DNA of 64,000 nt from Bacillota bacterium (GCA_023410875.1 JAEYPH010000062.1:14184-78183); one strand, 5' to 3'. Positions 4,784-59,948 are shown, numbered from the stretch's first letter. Numbers and translations are program-made. The notes: generated by a model not told the origin, from the sequence alone.

Positions 4784-6106
4784 TCAGGGTTCCACGCGGT
4801 TCATGTCCCGGGGGAACAGCGCCGCCCAGCGCACGTTGTCCAGCCCCAGCAGTTGCATCGTCAGGCGCTCCAGGCCCAGGCCCAGGCCGCCGTGGGGCGG
4901 CGCGCCGTATTTGTGGGTCATCAGGTATCCTTCGAAATCCGCCGGGTCCAGGCCCATGCGGCGCATCTTGGCCACCTGCATGTCATAATCATGGATGCGC
5001 TGGCCGCCGGAGGTGATCTCCAGCCCGCGGAACAGCAGGTCGAAGCTCAGCGTGACCTCGGGGTTCTCCGGGTCTTCCATGACGTAGAAGGGCCGCGCCG
5101 ACGTGGGGTAGTGGGTCACGAACAGGAACGGGCAGCCCAGCTCCTCCTCGGCGTATTGGCACAGCAGCACTTCTTCCTGGGGCTCTATGTCGTTGTAAGA
5201 CGTGATCTTGCGGCCGTACTTGCTCTCCAGAACCGCCTTGGCTTCGTGGAAGGGGATGGACGGGATGCCATCCTCGCCGATGCGGGGCATCTTGACGTCC
5301 AGCACGCGCAGCTCCTCGGCATACTCGCGCTGCAGCAGGTCCAGCGTGTAGCGCAGCAGGCCGGTCTCCATGTTCATCACGTCGAACATGCCGTCGATGA
5401 AGCCCATCTCAAAGTCCATGCTCGTGTATTCGTTGAGATGGCGGCTGGTGTTGTGGCGCTCGGCGCGGAACACCGGGCCGATCTCGAACACGCGCTCGAA
5501 CACCGGCACCATGGCCTGCTTGTAGAACTGGGGGCTTTGGGCCAGAAACACCTTGCGGTCGAAGTATTGCAGTTTGAAGAGGTTGCTGCCGCCCTCTGCG
5601 CCGGCGCCCACGATCTTGGGTGAATGGATCTCGGTGAAATCCTGCGCCGTCAGATATTCGCGGAAGGCGCGGCTGAGCGCCTCCTGCACCTTGAAGGCCG
5701 CGCGCATGGCGGGGTTGCGCAGCGCAGCCGGGCGGTATTCCAGCGAGGCCTCTATGGAAATGTGGCTCTTGCGTTTGTTGATCGTAACAGGCAGCGGCTC
5801 GGCGAAGCGCGAGAGCACTTCCACGGAGCTTAAGCTGATCTCAAAGCCATAGGCGGCGCGCCCGTCGGCGCGCACGATACCCTGGGCGCGGATGCCGTAG
5901 CCTTCGCGCAGGTCCAGGCATTGGGCGGTCAGCGCCTCGTCGGCCACGCATTGCAGCACATAGCGCCCGGTGCGCAGCATGACGAAGGCGAAGGAGCCCA
6001 TATCGCGGATTTTATGCACAATTCCGCATATTGTTACGGGGCCATTGGCGTTTTTCAGGCCTTCCAAAGTGAGTTTCGGGGGGACCAAACCGGAGACGAC
6101 GGCCAT
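4784..6106 (-). CDS. aspS: aspartyl-tRNA synthetase, archaeal/type-2 form (probably non-discriminating)
   Basis: Class II aaRS motifs FRAERHNTSRHLNEYTSMDFE and GGLGLGLERL. About 440 aa. I moved the start to ATG 6106 (GGAGG 5 nt upstream) from the ORF-track start at 6157, which has no RBS. Operon with gatCAB supports a non-discriminating role (inference). Confidence 0.85.
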   Translation of the reverse strand: MAVVSGLVPPKLTLEGLKNANGPVTICGIVHKIRDMGSFAFVMLRTGRYVLQCVADEALTAQCLDLREGYGIRAQGIVRADGRAAYGFEISLSSVEVLSRFAEPLPVTINKRKSHISIEASLEYRPAALRNPAMRAAFKVQEALSRAFREYLTAQDFTEIHSPKIVGAGAEGGSNLFKLQYFDRKVFLAQSPQFYKQAMVPVFERVFEIGPVFRAERHNTSRHLNEYTSMDFEMGFIDGMFDVMNMETGLLRYTLDLLQREYAEELRVLDVKMPRIGEDGIPSIPFHEAKAVLESKYGRKITSYNDIEPQEEVLLCQYAEEELGCPFLFVTHYPTSARPFYVMEDPENPEVTLSFDLLFRGLEITSGGQRIHDYDMQVAKMRRMGLDPADFEGYLMTHKYGAPPHGGLGLGLERLTMQLLGLDNVRWAALFPRDMNRVEP

Positions 6107-6319: not shown

Positions 6320-6395
<76 letters not shown>

Positions 6396-6847: not shown

Positions 6848-7486
6848 TTATAGATCGACTTTCTCAAACCGTTTTACCGAAAGCCGGTAGGAAGCGACGG
6901 TAAACCCGAAGAACAGCGCGATCCCGACAGCCAGCACGCCCAGATGCAAACCGATGTGCTGCGTGCCGTCCAGCACCCGGGCGGCCGGCACAAGCAGGAC
7001 GAGCATTTCGATGCCCGCGGCGATCAGCATGACCACGGCGGTGGCTACAGTAATGGGGATAGCGGTCTTGTAGGCGGTCTTATAGAACATCGGGAGCATG
7101 ATCAGATTGAATATTCCGTAGATCATAAACCCAAAGCCGATGTATGCGATGTTGGCATCAAGCATGAAGCTGCCCTGGGGATAGATCGCCATATTGATCA
7201 GTACGAATGCGGCCGTCACCACTAGCTGCAACAGCTCGAGCAAAGCCATGCTGAGCACGCGCGCCTTCACGATGTCGCGTCGGCGCACCGGCAGCAGCGC
7301 GGTGAACATGAGGTCGTTCTGCGCCTTGGAGCCGGAGAAGATATTGGGCACGGAAAAGAAGAAGAAATACATCAGCGCGAAGAAATACAGCCACTGCGGT
7401 ATCAGCACCAGGGCGCCGAACAGCGACATCAGCAGGAACGATGGGTGTATCGTCAGGCGAAACTCCTTATACACCAAATTCTTCAT
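6848..7486 (-). CDS. ABC-2 type transporter permease / polytopic membrane protein
   Basis: 212 aa and strongly hydrophobic (about 6 TM). Start overlaps the upstream ATPase stop by 4 nt. Confidence 0.65.
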   Translation of the reverse strand: MKNLVYKEFRLTIHPSFLLMSLFGALVLIPQWLYFFALMYFFFFSVPNIFSGSKAQNDLMFTALLPVRRRDIVKARVLSMALLELLQLVVTAAFVLINMAIYPQGSFMLDANIAYIGFGFMIYGIFNLIMLPMFYKTAYKTAIPITVATAVVMLIAAGIEMLVLLVPAARVLDGTQHIGLHLGVLAVGIALFFGFTVASYRLSVKRFEKVDL

Positions 7487-8494: not shown

Positions 8495-8562
8495 GCTGAT
8501 GTAGCTCAGGAGGGAGAACAGTAAGGACGAGGTCACCAGTTCGAATCTGTTTAAGAGCTCCA
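8495..8562 (+). pseudogene. decayed tRNA-Thr copy
   Basis: GTAAGGACGAGGTCACCAGTTCGAATCTGtTTAAGAGCTCCA matches the 3' 43 nt of the tRNA at 6320-6395 with one mismatch. The 5' part keeps only GCTnnnnTAGCTCAG. The anticodon-stem 5' half is missing and the acceptor stem has 2 mismatches. The upstream TTTTGCTATA matches the -10 region of the intact gene. Confidence 0.6.
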
Positions 8563-8568
8563 GTAAAA

Positions 8569-10220: not shown

Positions 10221-10365
10221 GTCGCGCTCTCCAGTGGTGCCTACAGTATCTTACGGGTAAGGCCATGACGAAGGAGGCATTATAGTAATCGCCTGGATTA
10301 TACCAATTCATCCATGTGTTATCAATAAAAACTGCAAAAAGTTGCCGAAGAATGCCGTTTTCACA

Positions 10366-11151
10366 TCACCTGTGCAGGTCTGCCTCCCGTTCGAGGACAC
10401 CCTCCCAATCGTCTTTCACCTTCTGATAGCCCATCTCATTCATGAACACAAACATGGCATCCAACAGCCTTAGTTGATCCTCCGCATTAGCATCTTTCGC
10501 GATGCGTTCCATAATGATTAGCAGTTCGCCATCGGGCAGCGGCTTTCTAATCAGCATGTGGAGCAGGTATGGCGCCCGATTGAGGAATGGCGCAACAAAT
10601 CCGTTGGCTGCCCACAAGGTTTCCACAAGGAATTCCATAGACCGTGCGGCCATTTGATACATGCCGAAGGTAAATCCGTGCCTGCGGCACTTGAGGGAGC
10701 GAAATACACCGTCATAATAGCTGTCCAGCTTTGCGGATATGATGCCGCCCAGTTCACACTGCGGGTAGCGAATTATTTCCCTCACGATATGCTCAAGCCT
10801 ACCATGGTCATCCAGCACATACATTGCATGCAGCAATTCGCGCACATCCGGGCCGCCGCGTGCATAGGCTTCAAGCTCAGATTCGGACGTTGCCCAGCAA
10901 TCCACATGTCGGCGCAGCTTGATGTGGGGCTCACGGTATTCCGGATGCCTTTTGAGCGCTTCATCGGTGAACACGACTTGTATGTCGTAGTCCGATGTTT
11001 CGTCGTCCATGCCTGCCGATATGGAACCAAGCAACATCGCTCCAACAAGCCCATCAAAGCCGTAGAGTTGCTTTGTCAACTCCCGGCGAATATATTCGAG
11101 TTCAGTCAAAATAGGATAGCCTCCCTCAATCAATGGGGATATGTGCCTCAA
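10366..11151 (-). CDS. nucleotidyltransferase-domain protein (KNTase/aminoglycoside-NTase-like fold)
   Basis: 261 aa. Minimal NTase motif LLGSISAGMDDETSDYDIQVVF (GS...D.D) plus a helical C-terminal domain. Substrate not inferable. Confidence 0.5.
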   Translation of the reverse strand: MRHISPLIEGGYPILTELEYIRRELTKQLYGFDGLVGAMLLGSISAGMDDETSDYDIQVVFTDEALKRHPEYREPHIKLRRHVDCWATSESELEAYARGGPDVRELLHAMYVLDDHGRLEHIVREIIRYPQCELGGIISAKLDSYYDGVFRSLKCRRHGFTFGMYQMAARSMEFLVETLWAANGFVAPFLNRAPYLLHMLIRKPLPDGELLIIMERIAKDANAEDQLRLLDAMFVFMNEMGYQKVKDDWEGVLEREADLHR

Positions 11152-23213: not shown

Positions 23214-24077
23214 ATGAATCGTATCAAGCGCATATGGGTGCAGGCCCTGGCCGCTCTGGCCGCCAACGCCAATCTGGGCGGATTCGCAGATGGCACGATC
23301 TATCGGGGAAAAAGCAAGTCCGTGTGCCTGCCGGGCTTCAACTGCTACAGCTGCCCCGGCGCGCTGGCCGCATGCCCCATCGGTGCGCTGCAGGCGGTGC
23401 TGGGCAGCGCCCGTTATCAGTTCACGTGGTATGTGCTGGGCACGCTGCTGCTGTTCGGCCTGATCGCCGGGCGGTGGATCTGCGGCTGGCTGTGCCCCTT
23501 CGGGCTGTTCCAGGACCTGCTGCACCGCATCCCCACGCCCAAGTGGAAGGTGCCGCGCCGCCTGCGCTGGCTGCGGTATACCAAATATGTGCTGCTGGCC
23601 GTGCCGGTGGTGCTGCTGCCGATGTTCTTCGTGGGCCCCACGGGCATCGGGGAGCCGTGGTTCTGCAAGGTCATCTGCCCCAACGGCACGATCTTCGGCG
23701 CACTGCCGCTGATGGCGGTCAGCGACGCTCTGCGCCAATCGGTGGGGTTGCTGTTCTTCTGGAAGCTGGGTCTGGCGCTGGCCATCGTGGCGCTGTGCGT
23801 GGTGCTGTACCGCTTCTTCTGCCGTTTTCTGTGCCCGCTGGGGGCCATCTACGGCCTTTTCAACCGCATCGCCTTTGTGCACATGTCCGTGGACCGCCAC
23901 CGCTGTACCAACTGCCGGGCCTGCGCCCGCGCCTGCAAGATGGATGTCGAGCCGCACAAAACGCCTAACTCGCCGGAGTGCATCCGCTGCGGTGACTGCC
24001 GTAAGGCGTGCCCCCATGGGGCGATATCCATGGGAGTGACTGCCGGGGAGAAGAAGAAAGAAGCGCCGACACAATAA
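23214..24077 (+). CDS. membrane-bound 4Fe-4S binding protein (NapH/MauN-like polyferredoxin)
   Basis: 287 aa. N-terminal CYSCPGALAACP, several TM segments, and C-terminal CTNCRACARAC / CIRCGDCRKACP ferredoxin motifs. Confidence 0.8.
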   Translation: MNRIKRIWVQALAALAANANLGGFADGTIYRGKSKSVCLPGFNCYSCPGALAACPIGALQAVLGSARYQFTWYVLGTLLLFGLIAGRWICGWLCPFGLFQDLLHRIPTPKWKVPRRLRWLRYTKYVLLAVPVVLLPMFFVGPTGIGEPWFCKVICPNGTIFGALPLMAVSDALRQSVGLLFFWKLGLALAIVALCVVLYRFFCRFLCPLGAIYGLFNRIAFVHMSVDRHRCTNCRACARACKMDVEPHKTPNSPECIRCGDCRKACPHGAISMGVTAGEKKKEAPTQ

Positions 24078-24529
24078 TGTTTATGGAGAACAACATGATC
24101 AAGCATAAGGTATGGGTGCTTATTCTGGTTATTCTCGCGTTTCTGCTAGGAGTATCGTTATGCTTGGTTGGAATTCTAGTTGTTGTTCATCCCACGAACA
24201 GAGTGATTGAAACGTGGAAACAACCGGATGACATTGCGTACAACGATTTTGGACCATACTATTTATCCGTTGTGGAAAGCAGCCTGGATATAAGCCATTT
24301 GCCGTTTGCGGTGGAGAGACAATACTATTTATACGTAGGAGCCGACAGCGGCAAGCCAGTGTATGGACACGTTATTGACTTCTCTTTTCATCCTGACACA
24401 TCACATCTCTATGATTTAGAAGAGTTTATCAAGATGTCAAATGTCACTTGGTCCAGCGAAGGTGTTACATTCGAAGAGGCCTCAGGGCACAAGCTTTATA
24501 TCCCTAGAAGCATGCTTAACGCAAGATGA
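24077..24529 (+). CDS. hypothetical membrane-anchored protein (AT-rich orphan gene)
   Basis: About 150 aa with an N-terminal TM (VWVLILVILAFLLGVSLCLVGILVVV). Markedly lower GC than its neighbours. Alternative starts at 24083 and 24095. Confidence 0.45.
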   Translation: MFMENNMIKHKVWVLILVILAFLLGVSLCLVGILVVVHPTNRVIETWKQPDDIAYNDFGPYYLSVVESSLDISHLPFAVERQYYLYVGADSGKPVYGHVIDFSFHPDTSHLYDLEEFIKMSNVTWSSEGVTFEEASGHKLYIPRSMLNAR

Positions 24530-24566
24530 GCCAGTAGTGAAGGGCTCGATCCTATAATTTGTGAAT

Positions 24567-24732
24567 AAAAGGGGCTGTCACACTAGCCACATATTGTCAT
24601 ACTCATACAAAAGATTGGGCCGAAGGTTTCCAAAGGGCGATCGGAAAGCCCTTTGGTCGCGCCTGGAGGCGCGAAATTTTCCTCGCATTGTATAAAGTAT
24701 ATACTATGTGCTTAGTGCGACAGGCCCTTTTG
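24567..24732 (+). repeat. structured intergenic element, copy A (long closing stem plus conserved two-hairpin core)
   Basis: The core at 24619-24663 is identical to 27477-27521. Local hairpins are CCAAAGGGC/GCCCTTTGG and TCGCGCC/GGCGCGA. The outer arms at 24567-24612 and 24686-24732 are mutually complementary (read by eye). Confidence 0.6.
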
Positions 24733-24742
24733 TAAGTGACGC

Positions 24743-25690
24743 TTATTTCAGCCACCTCTCCAGCAACTCCACACCCCGTTGCTCCGCCTCATATGCCCTG
24801 AGAATGTTGCCGTGTAGCGCGTCCAGCAGCTCAGGAGTGGGGAAGGCCGGGTTCAGCCGGACCAGATAGAGCGCAGCCCGCAGTTCGCCCGCGACCTGCG
24901 CGTATGCCGCGGCCGCGGGGGTCAGAGTTGCGTCGCCGGCGGCCACGCCCCGCAGCCAGATGGCCGCGCCCCGGCGCAGCGACGCATAGGTGGCAATGTA
25001 ATACAACGACGGGAAGCCTGCTTGGTCGACATTGCGCACGAGGTTGGCCCAGTGGGGGTAGGCGGCCAGGCCGTTTTCATAGTTGGGCCGGTCCTCCCAC
25101 TCGCGGCCCCGGGCGTGGTCAACGGCGACTTGTATCGTGCGCCGCGCCAGCTCCGCGGGGGTTGCACCCGAGGGCTTGCCGGGCACCGTGACCGACAAGA
25201 TCGGGATTTCCCGCTTTCCCAATTGCGCGTAGGGCAGCGTCTGGCGCTCGTTCCGTATGCTCAGCGTGTCGTAGGCCTGGGCGTCGTCGTCATACCCAAT
25301 GACGACACCCCACTCGGGGATGCCGATGTCCCACACGACCGGCGCGACGCCGCTGTCTATGGCCTCCACGATGGCGCGGTGGGCCTGCTCGCAGCGCTCG
25401 GCCTCCTGCGCTTCCTCGTGCCACAGGCGGGAGATGTACGTGCAGTCATAGCCGTTCAGCTCCACGCCGGTCTTCAGCAGGTTGAAATCGAAGATGCTCG
25501 TGGCGCTGGGGCAGTTGGCCTTGGTGTCCACCCAGATGCGAAAGGCGAAGGCGCTGGCGCCGGTGACCGATTCCCGGCTTACGGCGTATCCCGCGTACGT
25601 CAGAGACGAGGCCAGCATGTGGGTGAAGGAGAAGGGAATCTCGCCGGGTTCAGTGGGCAGCATCGTGAAGTGTTGCAACTGGTTTTTCAT
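24743..25690 (-). CDS. hypothetical protein (possibly BtrH-N/peptidase-C39-like fold, weak)
   Basis: 315 aa from MKNQLQHF (AAAGGAGG RBS). No firm motif recognised. Its start lies inside the 3' end of the AraC gene (41-nt overlap). Confidence 0.5.
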   Translation of the reverse strand: MKNQLQHFTMLPTEPGEIPFSFTHMLASSLTYAGYAVSRESVTGASAFAFRIWVDTKANCPSATSIFDFNLLKTGVELNGYDCTYISRLWHEEAQEAERCEQAHRAIVEAIDSGVAPVVWDIGIPEWGVVIGYDDDAQAYDTLSIRNERQTLPYAQLGKREIPILSVTVPGKPSGATPAELARRTIQVAVDHARGREWEDRPNYENGLAAYPHWANLVRNVDQAGFPSLYYIATYASLRRGAAIWLRGVAAGDATLTPAAAAYAQVAGELRAALYLVRLNPAFPTPELLDALHGNILRAYEAEQRGVELLERWLK

Positions 25691-27258: not shown

Positions 27259-27420
27259 ATGGAAAAGAAGCAAGAGCAACCGTTGCTTTATGACCCGGCG
27301 CAGTGCCCGTGCTCCAACGCCAAGTGCGAGCGCAACCGCAACTGCGAGGCGTGCCAAAGTTTCCACCACGCCAGGGGCGGCCTTACCCGGTGCGAGCGCC
27401 GGGCGAAGAAGGAAAACTAA
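27259..27420 (+). CDS. 53-aa cysteine-rich mini-protein, hypothetical
   Basis: Below the ORF-track cutoff; translated by hand. MEKKQEQPLLYDPAQCPCSNAKCERNRNCEACQSFHHARGGLTRCERRAKKEN. GAAGAGGAG RBS. Six Cys plus HH, which suggests metal binding. Confidence 0.45.
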   Translation: MEKKQEQPLLYDPAQCPCSNAKCERNRNCEACQSFHHARGGLTRCERRAKKEN

Positions 27421-27424
27421 GAGG

Positions 27425-27594
27425 AAAGGGCTGTCGTGTTCGTCACATAACTGCATAATCATTCATAGTAATTGGTGCCGAAGGTTTCCAAAGGGCGATC
27501 GGAAAGCCCTTTGGTCGCGCCAACAGGCGCGAAATCCCTTCCCATTGAATGAATTATGCACTTTATGCGCTTAACGCGGCAGCCCCTTGGTTTT
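27425..27594 (+). repeat. structured intergenic element, copy B
   Basis: Same 45-nt core (27477-27521) followed by GCGCGAAAT. The arms GGGCTGTCGTG..CACATAACTGCATAATCATTCA and TGAATGAATTATGCACTTTATGCG..CGCGGCAGCCC differ from copy A but pair with each other. Confidence 0.6.
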
Positions 27595-27602
27595 GTTATA
27601 AG

Positions 27603-29867
27603 TTATTTAGTGCCTTCCACCACATAATCCGGTGCGTCCTTGGCCGGCAGGAAGGTTGATATCACTCCATCTCCTCCCTTGTACTTGATGAACACAACAT
27701 AGCCGCCTTCGCTGGCGAGGAACAGGCTGCGCGAGCGGGACAGCACCTCCTGCTGCTGCGCCTTGTCGGTCAGGAAGAGCTTCAGGCCATCGCGCTCCTT
27801 ATATCCTTCAATATCCTGCTGCGCCCCGAACCCGCTGTAGAACATCGGGAAGGAGTGCAGCGCATTGTAGTCGTAGGAGTGGCTTATCTTGCTGTAATCC
27901 AGCAGGCTGACATACTCAATCTCTGCGGTGTTCTGTATCGCGTCCATCCAACCGTTTTCCCGCAGGTAGGCCAGCGTTTCGGTGAACTGCTCCGTGACGT
28001 ATACAAATCCGCCCTCGTAGCCGGCGTCTTCCAACGTGCTGCCCTGCGCTGTGAACGCCAGGATGCACGTCTCCGGCTTTGCCGGCAGATAACGGTCCTC
28101 CGGCGTCTGGGCGGCCAGGTCGTTGGCGATGCAGTTCAGCAGATCTTTACGCCGCCGCTCCACAAGTTGAAGTCCCTCGATGGCACTAAAAAACGGCGCG
28201 CACAGATAAACGTTGCCAGCGCGATAGGGCGCGGTGTCCAAGCCAGGCTGTTCGTCCTCGTCCGACAGCAGATAGTCGCGATAGGCCTTTTTCACCGCCG
28301 CAGTGTTGTCCAGCGCCATCATGGCCCTGATCAGGTCCGGCGTCAGCGCTTGGTAGGCGCGGGTCACGGTGCTGCCGTTTGCCATCGTGTAGGTGATCTG
28401 GGTGGCAGCGCCATACGCCCGGCCGCCGTCCACTTTCATGGTCCGGTTCAGCAGGCCCACCTGTGTCAGCGCGCGGTGAACCTCAATCGCCGCGGCGATG
28501 TCTGCTTTGTCCACCAACGTAATGTCATTTTGAAAACTCATGTCCGGCACGAGCCCGCCCTGACCGCCACCGCCATTGTTGGGCATGTAGAAGTCCAGCC
28601 CGTTGTAGGTCATCTTTATGCTCTTCACGGCGTCGGCAGCCGGCACGAATCCGCTAAAGCCCAACCCGCCGGAAAGGAACCCCCCCGCCAGCGCCAGCAT
28701 GGCGGCCAGGCCTGCGCCCAAGGGCAGCAGGCCCTTCCACACCCGGCGGCGCAGCAGCCGCAGCGGGAGCGCCGCCGCCAGCATCACGCCGCCGGCTGAC
28801 GCCGCCGCGATGGACAGCATGGCGCCGGTGGAAAGCTTCATCGTGGTATACAGCGGCAGCATGTACACAAGCCCGAAGGCGAAGAAGCCGACGGTCAGCA
28901 TGCTGGCGTAGGCGGTGGCCTTGCCCGCGCCCAGCACGCCGGTGTGCTCCACACCGGTCTTCAGGAAGACCCGGTGGGCGAACCACAGCAGCGCGCCCGT
29001 GGCCGCCAGCCAACCCGGTATCAGTGCCCAGCGGATGGGCAGCGGGGGCAGGCTGGCCAGGTATTCCTGATAGCCGGTGACGAGTTTCGACTCGTGACTG
29101 AAGCGGCTGATATATTGGCTCATGAAGATCAGCGGATTCCAGTCCGACAGTTCGCGAACCAACGAGGTGTTCCAGCTGTAGTAGAGCGTATCTGAAAGGC
29201 CAAAGCCGTTGCCGGGCAGCAGGTGCAGCAGCAGCCCGTTCAGGCTCATCCCAAGCAGGGTGGGCAGCGCCATCAGGATCAACGAATAGGCGATGCCTTC
29301 TGCCAGCGTCTTGCAGGCGCAGCACACGAGCACGACTACGCTGTATAGTGCCAGTATCTGCAGGCCCATGCCCAGCGTAAAGAAGGCGATCCGCGCCAGC
29401 GCCAGCCCCACATCGGCGAACAGCACCAGGTTGACCGCCAGCGAAGCCAGCATTGTGACAACCAGTGGCAGCAGTGCGCCTGCGGCTCCCGCCGCGTAGC
29501 GCGAGCAGAACAGCTCATGGCGCGAAAGCCCCATGCCGAACCACGCGTTGGCGGCGCTGCGGTTGAAAAGGAAGCGGAAGGCCATCACGCCCTGCAGCAA
29601 TGCGGACAGCAGCGCCAGCGCCGGGAAAAACAGGCTCAGCGTCGAGCCGTCGAACAAGCAATACTTTATGGAGTTGTATGGGGCTTCGCCCTGCCCGTTG
29701 AGCGAGGTTATTATCACGATGATGGGCAGCACGATCACCGCCAGAAAGAGGATGGTGCACAGTATCGTCAGCAGCATGCCTTCGCCGATGGCCTGCCAGA
29801 AGGAGTGGGCCCACGGGCGGTACCGCCGCACCCTGCTATTCGCCGTCAAAGAGACCTGAGAAGTCAT
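27603..29867 (-). CDS. large polytopic membrane protein with about 330-aa C-terminal soluble domain (putative permease partner of the adjacent ABC ATPase)
   Basis: 754 aa. About 12 hydrophobic segments in the first 420 aa, then a non-hydrophobic domain with no motif I recognise. Overlaps the ATPase stop by 32 nt (start uncertain). Confidence 0.6.
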   Translation of the reverse strand: MTSQVSLTANSRVRRYRPWAHSFWQAIGEGMLLTILCTILFLAVIVLPIIVIITSLNGQGEAPYNSIKYCLFDGSTLSLFFPALALLSALLQGVMAFRFLFNRSAANAWFGMGLSRHELFCSRYAAGAAGALLPLVVTMLASLAVNLVLFADVGLALARIAFFTLGMGLQILALYSVVVLVCCACKTLAEGIAYSLILMALPTLLGMSLNGLLLHLLPGNGFGLSDTLYYSWNTSLVRELSDWNPLIFMSQYISRFSHESKLVTGYQEYLASLPPLPIRWALIPGWLAATGALLWFAHRVFLKTGVEHTGVLGAGKATAYASMLTVGFFAFGLVYMLPLYTTMKLSTGAMLSIAAASAGGVMLAAALPLRLLRRRVWKGLLPLGAGLAAMLALAGGFLSGGLGFSGFVPAADAVKSIKMTYNGLDFYMPNNGGGGQGGLVPDMSFQNDITLVDKADIAAAIEVHRALTQVGLLNRTMKVDGGRAYGAATQITYTMANGSTVTRAYQALTPDLIRAMMALDNTAAVKKAYRDYLLSDEDEQPGLDTAPYRAGNVYLCAPFFSAIEGLQLVERRRKDLLNCIANDLAAQTPEDRYLPAKPETCILAFTAQGSTLEDAGYEGGFVYVTEQFTETLAYLRENGWMDAIQNTAEIEYVSLLDYSKISHSYDYNALHSFPMFYSGFGAQQDIEGYKERDGLKLFLTDKAQQQEVLSRSRSLFLASEGGYVVFIKYKGGDGVISTFLPAKDAPDYVVEGTK

Positions 29868-37823: not shown

Positions 37824-37962
37824 TGTTGACTTGCCTTCCCCTGGAGGGGAAGGTGGCGCGAAGCGCCGGATGAGGTGTTAAAGCTGGAAATACCACCTCA
37901 TCAGTCGCCTACGGCGACAGCTTCCCCTCCGAGGGGAAGCCATGAAGGCTACTTTGTCAACA
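37824..37962. repeat. palindromic five-hairpin mosaic element
   Basis: Terminal inverted GTTGAC...GTCAAC. Internal hairpins are CTTCCCCT/GGGGAAG, GGCGC/GCGCC, GGATGAGGTG/CACCTCATC, GTCGCC/GGCGAC and CTTCCCCT/AGGGGAAG, arranged symmetrically. Confidence 0.55.
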
Positions 37963-57405: not shown

Positions 57406-58647
57406 TCAGCCCTCGCGCGCAGCCTTGCTCATCGCCGCGGTGCTGCTGTACCACTCCAGCGCATCCACATAGATATGCGCCACATCGTCCATGCACAGCT
57501 GCAGGCCTGCTGCCAGCGTCGCGGCTTCGTCGAATTCACCCTGCTCATAGTGGAGCATCAAGGCATAGGTTCTGCCCAGCGGAGAGGAGAGGTCGCCGCG
57601 GATCAGGATGGCCTTGATCGTATCGGAAAGATTCAGGCAGCCCAGCAGGCTTTGGAAGGTGCAGCCGGTCAGCGCATCCAGCAGCGAGAACAGGCCCAGC
57701 AGCGCGTACTCGGCGCTTTGCCCGGCTTGCCCGGCGCGCCGTGCCAACAGGTCCAGGAACGTGGAGCGGATCAGAGAATGGGAAATCAGCACGTCCGGCT
57801 TGTTCCTGGCCAGGCGGGACAGCACCGACATGTTGACCCATTTGCGCACGCCTTCCATCCCCAGCATCACCACGGCGTCCTTCACCGACGAGAGCTTGTT
57901 GCGCCGGGCGTAGTAGGCGGAATTGACGAGCTTGATCGTGTCCAGCGAGAAGGCCACATCGCTTTCTATGGCGCTGATGATCTTGCCGAAGTCCGGCGAG
58001 GGTTCGTGGATGGCCTGCATCAGCTGCACATAGGCCATCTTGGTGGGCTGCACGGCCTTGGCGCTCAACGTGACCGGCCGGGCAAAAAAATAGCCCTGGA
58101 ACAGGTCGTAACCCAGCTTCATCGCGTGGACGAATTCGGCCTCGGTCTCCACCTTTTCGGCCAGAAAGCACAGCTTTCTGCTGCGATAGCGCTCGATGAT
58201 GGCCTGCTGCTGGCCGGCGTCGTTGGCTCGGAAATCCACCTTGATGACATCGGCCAGCTCCACCAGCGCGTCATAGCCCGGCTGCAGCACGTAATCGTCC
58301 AGCGCCAGCGTGTATCCAGCGGCCTTGAGCGCCCGGCACGCGGTCAGCACCTCCTCGGTGGGCTCCACGGTCTCCAGAATTTCCACGACGACTTGCTCGC
58401 GGGGCAGCAGCATCGGCACACCCTGCACCAGCAGGCAGGCGGTGAAGTTGATATAGGCCATCGTGTCGTCGGCCAGCACGTCCAGCCCATAGGACAAAAA
58501 GGCGCTGGTGATGACGCAGGAGGTCGCGTAGTCGCCATCTTGGGCGGTGTAGGCGCAAGCCTCGGGGGATTCCCGGTGCAGCAGCTCATAGGCGACGATG
58601 CTCTTGCGCCTGTTGAAGATGGGCTGCCTGGCAACATGCAACTGCAT
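57406..58647 (-). CDS. EAL plus HDOD domain protein, paralog A (EAL metal ligands retained)
   Basis: 413 aa from MQLHVARQPIF (GAGGAG RBS). YELLHR, INFT, EILET, LALDDY, IKVDF, AEKVET, and FQGYFF, followed by an HDOD region. Confidence 0.8.
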   Translation of the reverse strand: MQLHVARQPIFNRRKSIVAYELLHRESPEACAYTAQDGDYATSCVITSAFLSYGLDVLADDTMAYINFTACLLVQGVPMLLPREQVVVEILETVEPTEEVLTACRALKAAGYTLALDDYVLQPGYDALVELADVIKVDFRANDAGQQQAIIERYRSRKLCFLAEKVETEAEFVHAMKLGYDLFQGYFFARPVTLSAKAVQPTKMAYVQLMQAIHEPSPDFGKIISAIESDVAFSLDTIKLVNSAYYARRNKLSSVKDAVVMLGMEGVRKWVNMSVLSRLARNKPDVLISHSLIRSTFLDLLARRAGQAGQSAEYALLGLFSLLDALTGCTFQSLLGCLNLSDTIKAILIRGDLSSPLGRTYALMLHYEQGEFDEAATLAAGLQLCMDDVAHIYVDALEWYSSTAAMSKAAREG

Positions 58648-58706
58648 GGGCGACTCCTCGCGATCTTCCGGCGCCATTGCCGGTTCTATTGTGTTTTGCT
58701 GTGAGA

Positions 58707-59948
58707 TCAGCCTGGCTGGTTGGCAGCCTGCTTGAGCCAAATGTGGTCGTTGTACCATCGCAGGGATTGGATATAGACATCGGCAACGGTGTCCATCGGC
58801 ACACCCAGCGCCTGCGCATAGGCGGCGGCGCCTTCCCAGTCTCCGCGCTCGTAGCTCTGCATCAGCGCATAGGCGCCGGCCATGGCAGAATTTTTCTCTG
58901 TCTGCAGCAGCACAGCCTTGACCTCTTCGGAGATGTTGAGGCTGGTCAGCATCTTGTCAAAGGGACAGCTGGTCAGAGCGTCCAGCAGCGAGAAAAGCCC
59001 CAGCATGTAGAACTCCGGCGCGCGCCGGTGCAAGCCCAGCGCGCGGGCCAGCAGCTCCAGGAATTTGGAACGGATCAGCGATGTGCTCACCAGCACGTCG
59101 GGCTTGTTCTTGCCCAGCTTGGTCAGCGTGGAAAGCGTGATCCATTTGCGCACGCCCTCTATGCCCAATGTCACGATGGCCTGTTTGACCGAATAGATCT
59201 TGTAGCGCCGGGCGAAGTAGGCTGAGTTCACGAGCTTGATGGTCTCCAGCGACATGGCAACGTCGTTCTCTATGGCCACGATGATGCTCTGGAAATCCGG
59301 TTGTTCCTCGTTGACCGCCCGGATAAGCTGGATGTAGCCCAATTTGCTGATCGGTATGGTGCTGGCGGTGTAGATGACCGGATGGGCGAAGAAATAGCCC
59401 TGAAACAGCGAATACCCCATGATTTGCGCCGCGTCGAAAGCCGCATCGGATTCCACGCGCTGCGCGAGGAAGCGGGTGCTGCCATGCCGGGCGGCCAAAA
59501 GAGCCCGTTGGTCAGCCAGCGAACAATGCTGCACGTTGACTTTGATGATGTCCGCCAGAGTGAGCAGCCGGCTTTGGCTGTGTTCGGCGGTGAAGTTGTC
59601 CAGCGCGATTGTGTAGCCGGCGGATTTCAGCTTGCAGGCGGCGTCGTAGGCATCATCACTCTGCAGCACATCGGGGGAGAGCTCTATGCCCAGCTGCTCG
59701 TGGGGAAGCAGCGTGGGGATGCCCTGGGTCAGCAGAAACGGCGTGAAGTTGACATAGGCCATCTTGCCCTCGGTCAGCATGTCCAGGCCCAGCGTCAGAA
59801 AGCCGCTGGTCAGCACGCTGGAGGTGGCCTGGTCGTCGTCTTCAGCCTCGTAACGATTGGTGTTCTGGCTGCCCCTGTGCAGCAGCTCATAGGCCACAAC
59901 GTTTCTGGAAGCATCAAAAATAGGCTGGCGCGCCACATGCAAGTCCAT
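58707..59948 (-). CDS. EAL plus HDOD domain protein, paralog B (EAL motifs partly degenerate)
   Basis: 413 aa from MDLHVARQPIF. YELLHR and VNFT are retained. The other motifs read IELSP (not ELTE-like), IALDNF (DD to DN) and IKVNV (KxD to KxN). Confidence 0.8.
   Translation of the reverse strand: MDLHVARQPIFDASRNVVAYELLHRGSQNTNRYEAEDDDQATSSVLTSGFLTLGLDMLTEGKMAYVNFTPFLLTQGIPTLLPHEQLGIELSPDVLQSDDAYDAACKLKSAGYTIALDNFTAEHSQSRLLTLADIIKVNVQHCSLADQRALLAARHGSTRFLAQRVESDAAFDAAQIMGYSLFQGYFFAHPVIYTASTIPISKLGYIQLIRAVNEEQPDFQSIIVAIENDVAMSLETIKLVNSAYFARRYKIYSVKQAIVTLGIEGVRKWITLSTLTKLGKNKPDVLVSTSLIRSKFLELLARALGLHRRAPEFYMLGLFSLLDALTSCPFDKMLTSLNISEEVKAVLLQTEKNSAMAGAYALMQSYERGDWEGAAAYAQALGVPMDTVADVYIQSLRWYNDHIWLKQAANQPG

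Follow-up and report, generated by a model that had tools for sequence, protein, structure and literature searches.

The stretch of DNA analysed here (64,000 nucleotides (nt) of a Bacillota bacterium, GCA_023410875.1 JAEYPH010000062.1:14184-78183; referred to as the window, with positions counted from its first letter) carries a long hairpin at positions 24567-24732 on the plus strand, which a preliminary description had reported as an unclassified structured element of about 165 nt. We found that this hairpin, copy A in what follows, belongs to a very large family of dispersed repeats and is not a discrete gene, and that the conserved unit within it is not the 165-nt hairpin itself, but an asymmetric two-hairpin module of approximately 66-70 nt. 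The family is probably a dispersed repeat resembling repetitive extragenic palindromes (REPs) and miniature inverted-repeat transposable elements (MITEs), whose asymmetric and probably pseudoknotted core would be recognised as a single strand by a putative factor, while the copies in the window are embedded in a long hairpin resembling a terminator. This reading is drawn from sequence comparison, structure prediction and covariation.

The two-hairpin module and its covariation

The hairpin of 165 nt is genuine and would hardly have arisen by chance. Folded as RNA, copy A reached -77.4 kcal/mol on the plus strand (z -7.1) and -76.7 kcal/mol on the minus strand (z -8.6), with none of 200 shuffles being as stable in either case, and folding with DNA parameters gave -42.6 kcal/mol (z -7.9). 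The minimum free energy structure has an imperfect closing stem of about 45 pairs and two apical hairpins, in agreement with the long stem of roughly 45 bp and the two-hairpin cap reported in the preliminary description. The 5' arm (24567-24619, plus strand) comprises an A-run, the GC-rich foot AAAGGGGCTGTC and an AT-rich inner arm, and the 3' arm (24683-24732, plus strand) ends with the foot GACAGGCCC followed by TTTT. Between the arms lies the conserved module (24620-24682, plus strand), delimited by its conservation edges and by its match to a covariance model. It starts with a single base, denoted S (24620), and the box CGAAGG (24621-24626), continues with hairpin 1 (24630-24656) and hairpin 2 (24657-24674), both on the plus strand, and closes with a pyrimidine-rich tail. 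Hairpin 1 has a 9-bp stem, CCAAAGGGC/GCCCTTTGG (24630-24638 / 24648-24656), and the nonamer loop GATCGGAAA (24639-24647), whereas hairpin 2 has a 7-bp stem, TCGCGCC/GGCGCGA (24657-24663 / 24668-24674). The 9-bp and 7-bp hairpins of the apex therefore stand as originally proposed, but the loop of hairpin 2 is the 4-nt TGGA and not TGGAG. In addition, the loop bases at 24642-24644 (CGG) are complementary to those at 24620-24622 (CCG), which makes them a candidate pseudoknot.

Across the family, the module follows the consensus SCGAAGG, linker, hairpin 1 with the loop GAnCGS'AAA, hairpin 2 and GAAAyCCC. In 63 non-redundant contexts, information content dropped to background immediately 5' of CCGAAGG and approximately 8 nt past hairpin 2 (...GGCGCGAAAyCCCt). 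As these edges are sharp and the flanking sequences are unrelated, the conserved unit is the asymmetric module and not the long hairpin in which copy A carries it.

Covariation, proposed at the outset as a check, was found across many sequences for hairpin 1, for hairpin 2 and for the foot of the long stem. Hairpin 1 occurs with 75 distinct stem sequences of 4-12 bp (mode 9), and 98% of the cells are paired in an ungapped alignment of 68 sequences (A2); its covariation score was 0.342, as compared to 0.119 for column shuffles, none of which reached 0.342 in 500 trials, and to 0.152 at most for slid controls. Hairpin 2 is present in 129 of the 198 instances, with 60 stem sequences, and its loop is CGCA in 79 instances, which is the family consensus, while copy A has TGGA. 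As for the 18-bp foot of the long stem of the window type, double-sided changes were found at 5 positions among 8 elements from at least 6 species, and the inner arms of that stem align too poorly for covariation to be scored.

A further pair joins the 5' end of the module to the loop of hairpin 1. The base S, immediately before CGAAGG, is complementary to S', loop position 6, in 163 of 168 distinct genome-derived instances (C-G in 124, G-C in 39, other combinations in 5), with both positions having been left free in the retrieval pattern. As many as 8 different stem classes, and also 4 individual loci, contain both states, and the pair is therefore not an artefact of two clades. Moreover, SCG and CGS' suggest a possible pseudoknot of 3 bp, the helix being suggested and not established because only one of its three pairs varies; with a relaxed pattern, variants of the two invariant pairs were too rare and were confounded by register ambiguity. 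A base pair between S and S' would make sense only in a folded single strand.

Size, range and turnover of the repeat family

Searched with a covariance model of the core, the window gave two matches, copy A at 65.1 bits and a second copy, copy B, at 64.3 bits, with the next best at 14 bits. Copy B (approximately 27425-27590; module 27478-27540, hairpin 1 27488-27514, hairpin 2 27515-27532) is on the same strand as copy A and likewise lies between convergent genes. Only three bases differ between the 59-nt cores of the two copies, all of them in the loop of hairpin 2. Aligned as a whole, the identical core included, copies A and B have a mean column identity of 83%; their arms have strongly diverged, and the arms of each copy are nonetheless still self-complementary.

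Elsewhere, the search for further copies of the core returned more than 250 loci with unrelated flanks, which is a lower bound. A scan of viral contigs with the 9-bp stem of hairpin 1 fixed and the loop left free found 33 loci, approximately 29 of which are true relatives, with the loop GA[TCG]CG[GC]AAA and the upstream box (C/G)CGAAGG, the other 4 being unrelated hairpins with neither feature. A looser, oriented pattern found at least 117 loci in species-representative genomes, nearly all of them metagenome-assembled genomes (MAGs) of gut or rumen Clostridia; one alphaproteobacterial match to this pattern (L073) was rejected as clearly due to chance. The exact 44-nt core of the window variant was present at no fewer than 120 metagenome loci (human gut, rumen and other animals), and a covariance-model search detected at least 163 copies in 728 kb, corresponding to the first 100 loci. 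The carriers comprise Oscillospiraceae, Ruminococcus, Lachnospiraceae, Faecalibacterium, unclassified Clostridia MAGs and phage contigs, and some of the contigs labelled as viral hold portal, capsid and baseplate genes. Carrier contigs often contain several copies, and copies are often sited at contig ends. About 120 of the 137 copies that could be scored are clearly intergenic, and those called inside genes mostly reflect over-extended start calls.

Within single viral contigs, all copies were observed in one orientation (7 on the plus strand in L028 and 4 on the minus strand in L006, with L001, L005 and L021 as further cases); relative to the genes, this orientation is sense in some phages and antisense in others.

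The long closing stem is limited to some subfamilies, many copies being devoid of it, and most family members have neither a long stem nor a T-run. The window-type foot (GGGGCTGTCA.../...TGACAGCCCC) is found in both window copies and in loci L152, L038, L041, L056, L083 and L109; a second type of long stem, with GGyTCTTCACGG, occurs in L045, in L149 and in inverted-pair composites of the MAG RGIG2676; and a third type, with AT-rich arms, occurs in low-GC genomes (L087 and L089). Copies also form head-to-head inverted pairs approximately 120 nt apart (RGIG2676, SIG372, L081 and L113) and tandem arrays (L102, with a 90-nt period, L043, L064 and L091).

Some copies were observed to have an expanded loop in hairpin 1: either an additional hairpin of 10-60 nt is inserted on its 5' side, or its AAA segment gives way to a CAGAC...GTCTG mini-hairpin. 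Such copies are located in L016 (5054-5154 and 3883-3987), L043 (4131-4235), L061 (330-388), L081 (4148-4206) and L242 (approximately 10330-10390).

Orthologous loci then revealed how copies change in place. The 754-aa gene adjacent to copy B (27603-29867) served as anchor for retrieving such loci. At the orthologue of site B in a related species (L152/L153; 4365-4543 in L152), which has the same gene order and an 87% identical 754-aa protein, the element is inverted through both arms. The alignment score was 177.5 when the element was flipped and 91 when it was not, except that the outermost 10 nt or so on each side gave the better match in the unflipped state, a pattern to be expected if the arms had recombined or a template switch had occurred between them. 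Orientation was kept in 320 other orthologous comparisons, mostly between near-identical contigs, which indicates that inversion is occasional and does not operate as a fast switch.

At site A, both copy A and the adjacent 150-aa open reading frame (ORF) are absent from the related L152, in which the Fer4 gene is directly followed by a different palindromic repeat; as the whole intergenic region has been replaced, this site gives no junction information. The same kind of repeat was noticed in the window itself at 37833-37940 (GCCTTCCCCTGGAGGGGAAGG...GGATGAGGTG...CACCTCATCAGTCGC...GCTTCCCCTCCGAGGGGAAGC), unrelated to the module and with no Rfam match, and it fills site A in L152 at 7223-7414. 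Together with the module, it brings to at least two the families of GC-rich hairpin repeats in these genomes. A hammerhead reading of the L152 repeat containing CTGATGAG was considered and rejected, as the bases concerned are inverted-repeat arms, with no Rfam match.

Gain and conversion are seen in a further pair of loci, L242 and L245, with flanks that are 96-98% identical. L242 has an extra inverted unit of approximately 135 nt flanked by a TGATTTT direct repeat. In the resident copy, the loop is the simple one of 9 nt in L245 and an expanded one with a mini-hairpin in L242, which shows that a single locus can change from one loop form to the other. Moreover, the inverted-pair composites of RGIG2676 have sharp ends and terminal inverted repeats, and possible target-site duplications were seen in a few copies (AAATTTTC/AGATTTTC and ATTCTTTTG/ATTCCTTTG, with 7/8 and 8/9 matches). 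Both the TGATTTT repeat and these duplication-like flanks are of a kind that deletion at microhomologies would leave as well, the true copies of the GGyTCTTCACGG class are too few to judge target-site duplication, and none is evident at copies A and B.

A smaller rearrangement was observed in the viral contig IMGVR_UViG_3300031867_005611, where the nonamer loop of hairpin 1 has opposite orientations relative to its flanks in the two copies at L020 (71-97) and L016 (8509-8551), reading GACCGCAAA versus TTTGCGGTC; either a template switch has inverted this short segment inside the hairpin, or the difference is an artefact of assembly.

DNA or RNA, and the place among known repeats

We propose that the module belongs to a REP/MITE-like kind of selfish or domesticated DNA. 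Folded as a single strand, more likely of DNA than of RNA, it would constitute the recognition structure for a putative trans-acting protein that would spread or maintain the repeat. The loci compared above show copies being gained, lost, converted and occasionally inverted.

A role at the RNA level was implied by the preliminary description, and in this alternative the module would act as a protein-binding 3' untranslated region or stability element, as a small RNA family or as a self-processing RNA, with the two hairpins and the S/S' pseudoknot forming in transcripts. We regard it as rather improbable, even though a good part of what was observed would suit it. Two covarying stems are combined with a pair of the pseudoknot type and with an A-rich loop segment that could sit in the minor groove; strong conservation extends to unpaired nucleotides; the loop of hairpin 1 takes up peripheral hairpins of differing size without loss of the core, which is a trait of many RNA families; the long-stem copies are located in 3' regions, which are certainly transcribed, on both strands where the context is convergent; and some copies belong to phage contigs, a common setting for small ribozymes and RNA motifs.

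However, several independent observations, all made on sequence, point away from a function of the sense strand as RNA. Among the 843 pairs of hairpin 1 there are 2 G:T and 6 A:C combinations, and 5 and 6, respectively, among the 867 pairs of hairpin 2. With G:T no commoner than A:C in approximately 1,700 stem pairs, pairing is equally good on the opposite strand, and the strand-specific pairing typical of structured RNA, in which G-U is tolerated and A-C is not, is seen in neither hairpin. The element also folds as well with DNA parameters as with RNA parameters. Orientation is also unbiased, with 44 copies in sense and 42 in antisense in co-directional gene contexts, as counted with a home-made gene caller based on codon usage that is imperfect and mis-calls some genes of the window. 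A further 23 copies lie in convergent and 11 in divergent contexts; as background, the intergenic regions at the same loci are tandem in 605 cases, and convergent and divergent in 111 cases each. Either orientation is moreover tolerated at one orthologous site, the inverted site B. Finally, 150 non-redundant flanking ORFs matched 165 Pfam families, none of them more than four times, and this absence of a recurrent flanking family speaks against a regulon. The pattern of a cis-regulatory RNA, with fixed orientation and a recurrent class of downstream genes, is thus not that of the module, and strand-symmetric pairing, random orientation, unrelated neighbours and inversion at an orthologous site together leave the structured-RNA interpretation disfavoured.

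Database searches gave no support to a known RNA either. At gathering thresholds, Rfam 15 matched only a tRNA (6320-6392) in the whole window, and in the region 24450-24850 the best match at E<=10 was Xoo1, with 20.5 bits against a gathering score of 70. From approximately 190 kb of loci screened overall, 148 kb of motif-rich loci contained a T-box and a 5S rRNA only, both elsewhere than at the module, and 39 kb gave no match at E<=0.05. The exclusion of tRNA, T-box, 6S, SRP and RNase P RNA in the preliminary description is hence upheld at gathering as well as permissive thresholds, no family coming at or near its gathering score at the module, and there was no match to any of the known small ribozyme classes. 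Furthermore, no promoter-like signal above chance was found at the window copies. A CsrA-type site with a GGA loop was also considered and rejected, as a quarter of the copies have CGCAAA loops without GGA.

Compared with known DNA repeats, the family comes closest to the proteobacterial REPs, with their arrangements as bacterial interspersed mosaic elements (BIMEs) and as REPINs (REP doublets forming hairpins), and with their REP-associated tyrosine transposases (RAYTs). In both cases, short extragenic hairpin repeats occur in many copies per genome, singly, in clusters or as inverted pairs forming a larger hairpin, often at the 3' ends of genes and beside unrelated genes, and stem sequences change while pairing is maintained. 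As in REPs, the copies are numerous, extragenic and next to unrelated neighbours. Unlike REPs, the module is longer and asymmetric, has a conserved 9-nt loop and a base pair from its 5' end to that loop, and has a core common to several bacterial families and to phages instead of being lineage-specific; no RAYT was found in the loci searched. In PMC3733652, REPs are characterised as single imperfect palindromes of 20-40 nt with a GTAG or CGTC head, whereas the module has approximately 66-70 nt, two hairpins and an S-CGAAGG head.

Similarities were also evident with the structured MITEs, namely Correia (Neisseria), ERIC (enterobacteria), bcr1 (Bacillus cereus) and RUP/BOX (pneumococcus), which are non-coding, intergenic, 100-350 bp in length and folded into long hairpins. 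Some module subfamilies have terminal inverted repeats as well (GGGGCTGTCA... and GGyTCTTCACGG...), and an effect on transcript 3' ends is probable. These inverted repeats are present in the long-stem subfamilies and absent from the asymmetric core unit. In contrast to such MITEs, it is the internal apex module that is conserved and not the termini, unrelated arm families share the same core, target-site duplication is only suggested in a few copies, and no parent insertion sequence (IS) is known.

The third point of comparison is with palindrome-associated transposable elements (PATEs) of the IS200/IS605 type, which share with the module asymmetric ends without inverted repeats, hairpins near both ends, stems made of Watson-Crick pairs only and a base-paired end. 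IS608 recognises its cleavage site in a DNA-guided manner. A more specific version of the preferred explanation is therefore that the module is an end structure of single-stranded DNA transposition by a Y1 HUH enzyme of the IS200/IS605 or RAYT type, of PATE or REP likeness. We consider this version unlikely. It would account for the asymmetric ends with two subterminal hairpins, for the sharp edges of the module and for the Watson-Crick-only stems; the pair joining the extreme 5' end to an internal loop recalls the recognition of the cleavage site in IS608, the inverted-pair composites resemble REPINs, and an IS200 element is inserted beside the copy in L105. Nevertheless, the 4-5-nt target conserved 5' of the left end of PATEs has no counterpart here, information being approximately zero at positions -1 to -4 in the 63 non-redundant contexts; the covarying partner lies in a hairpin loop and not at a hairpin foot; the GTAG/CGTC head that PMC3733652 gives for the REP superfamilies is absent; and there is no orientation bias of the lagging-strand type, although inversions could erase such a bias. 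In approximately 2 Mb of loci, no Y1 gene flanked by the module was found, and the only Y1 gene detected has unrelated ends and a stop codon.

That gene was picked up with an IS200 TnpA sequence as query, which served for Y1 and RAYT genes alike. This query detected one Y1_Tnp ORF, in L105 (4339-4851; PF01797, E 1e-31), with an in-frame stop codon inside and directly beside a copy of the motif (4991-5020, minus strand). No Y1 transposase with matching end hairpins was found, this one having left-end and right-end hairpins of its own, CCACCAGC-TCT-GCTGGTGG and CCACCGGC-TAC-GCCGGTGG. On account of these distinct ends and of the stop codon it is a neighbour and not the parent of the repeat, and was treated as a chance neighbour or as a hairpin-targeted insertion. 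A RAYT flanked by repeats was not found in approximately 1.1 Mb of loci, where single-copy genes are easily missed with a few kb sampled per genome.

Taken together, a number of points weigh against a REP/MITE-like repeat. The rejection of the L105 transposase as parent is one of them, and the search for a partner protein by other means gave nothing more: all-against-all clustering of the ORFs within 1.5 kb of copies returned only syntenic phage contigs and MatE, the ORFs located between inverted pairs are housekeeping genes with no transposase, and the Pfam census of the 150 flanking ORFs showed no enrichment of a transposase or of any other family. Flank BLAST at 273 loci gave length polymorphisms only and no clean empty site, and no unambiguous target-site duplication was found in the copies examined, which is why mobility is read from distribution and polymorphism. 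The loop and the CGAAGG box are nearly invariant across bacterial families, which is unusual for REPs and could reflect a conserved cellular function, the RNA level included. Lastly, the viral scan was the sole retrieval unbiased for loop and box, the other patterns having fixed several conserved positions, and the orientation counts depend on the imperfect gene calls mentioned above.

A bolder possibility, which we hold to be unlikely, is that a new system acting on folded single strands in Clostridia and their phages uses the module as its structure for recognition or cleavage. This would be either a new REP-like repeat whose mobilising or domesticated enzyme belongs to a new class or, less likely, a small self-processing RNA, with the 5' edge of the module as the processing site.

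Proteobacterial REP/RAYT systems, BIMEs and Correia elements are well studied, and influence where transcription stops, how stable mRNAs are, how genomes rearrange and where assemblies break. No catalogued equivalent from the Clostridia that dominate gut and rumen was found in the resources searched, in which the present repeat family is uncatalogued; the literature on REP/RAYT or MITEs in Clostridia and on multicopy structured RNAs gave no matching description, and one may exist elsewhere. The covariance model can be used for annotating hundreds of intergenic sites in genomes and MAGs of Oscillospiraceae and Ruminococcaceae, the REP/MITE-like family would explain some assembly breaks and local inversions, and the module may serve as bait for finding the protein that recognises it.

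The window copies and their surroundings

With the two window hairpins explained as members of one repeat, a local role in termination of the convergent transcripts is predicted for them. Copy A is preceded by an ORF of 150 aa (24077-24529, plus strand) and faces a gene of 315 aa on the minus strand (24743-25690), with a stop codon 10 nt from the element, so that its location between convergent genes is as first reported. Copy B is preceded by a Cys-rich ORF of 53 aa (27259-27420, plus strand) and faces the gene of the 754-aa protein on the minus strand (27603-29867), with a stop codon 12 nt away. These gene calls were taken from L151, an independent assembly of the same locus.

After the foot of copy A, GGGGCTGTC/GACAGGCCC, comes TTTTGT, and AATAAAA on its upstream side provides a T-run on the other strand, which is the GC-rich stem with a T-run expected of a terminator on both strands. 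All 8 members of the window subfamily have a purine- or A-rich 5' flank, the GC-rich covarying 18-bp foot and a T-rich 3' flank; moreover, long-stem elements with callable flanks have at least one stop codon at a distance of 3-150 nt, and none of them is located in a divergent region. With an A-run, a GC-rich foot and a T-run on arms of about 45 bp, the local effect is most likely termination and 3'-end protection, and copies A and B would serve their convergent genes by terminating transcription in both directions or by protecting 3' ends. A consensus terminator scan missed both copies because their loop is far longer than 8 nt, and elsewhere in the window the foot GGGCTGTC shows no enrichment, with 25 matches where 31 would be expected.

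It is a different matter whether the element is merely an unusually long bidirectional intrinsic terminator, with the likeness of copies A and B due to local duplication. The foot between convergent genes resembles that of Rho-independent bidirectional terminators, and core-less short hairpins with a similar foot look like ordinary terminators. However, a stem of about 45 bp with a structured apex of 100 nt is unlike such terminators, and most members of the family have no such foot; hundreds of unrelated loci and species share an almost identical apex of 59-70 nt but differ in their arms; and neither the conserved nonamer loop nor the S/S' pair is needed for termination. As a full explanation, this alternative is already contradicted and can be given very little credence; all that is left of it is a local role for the foot. 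The earlier remark that the element is more elaborate than an intrinsic terminator needs to be is thereby borne out, since the foot is terminator-like and the conserved module is foreign to what a terminator requires.

An integron origin, with attC-like recombination sites and the 150-aa and 53-aa ORFs as gene cassettes, was equally found to be highly improbable. As with attC sites, imperfect palindromes that probably act as single strands follow small ORFs: one of unassigned function precedes each window copy, that of copy A (24077-24529) having a lower GC content than its surroundings and no Pfam match. In addition, this ORF and copy A are jointly absent in the related species, the neighbouring GrpB and GyrI/Cass2-like genes are of kinds often present in cassettes, and the element is inverted at site B. 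The R''/R' core sites RYYYAAC and GTTRRRY are, however, absent, the ends being AAAGGGGCTGTC... and ...GACAGGCCCTTTT; a conserved centre with variable arms is the reverse of attC, in which the ends are conserved and the centre varies; members of the family flank ordinary housekeeping genes in any orientation; and no recombinase recurs near them, nor was any integrase context seen. The preliminary description had already set integron attC sites aside on account of the conserved centre, and the lack of attC-type ends agrees with that judgement.

Two other features were observed in the window. The 3' end of the tRNA gene at 6320-6392 is repeated directly over 46 nt at 8521-8566, 2.1 kb downstream and with 96% identity, and a low-GC stretch lies at approximately 8-11 kb, after this repeat; the two sites resemble att sites, as a small integrated element or its remnant would have them. 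Moreover, the region 57604-59300 contains two diverged tandem segments with 72-74% identity and a spacing of 1304 nt, which indicate tandem paralogous genes.

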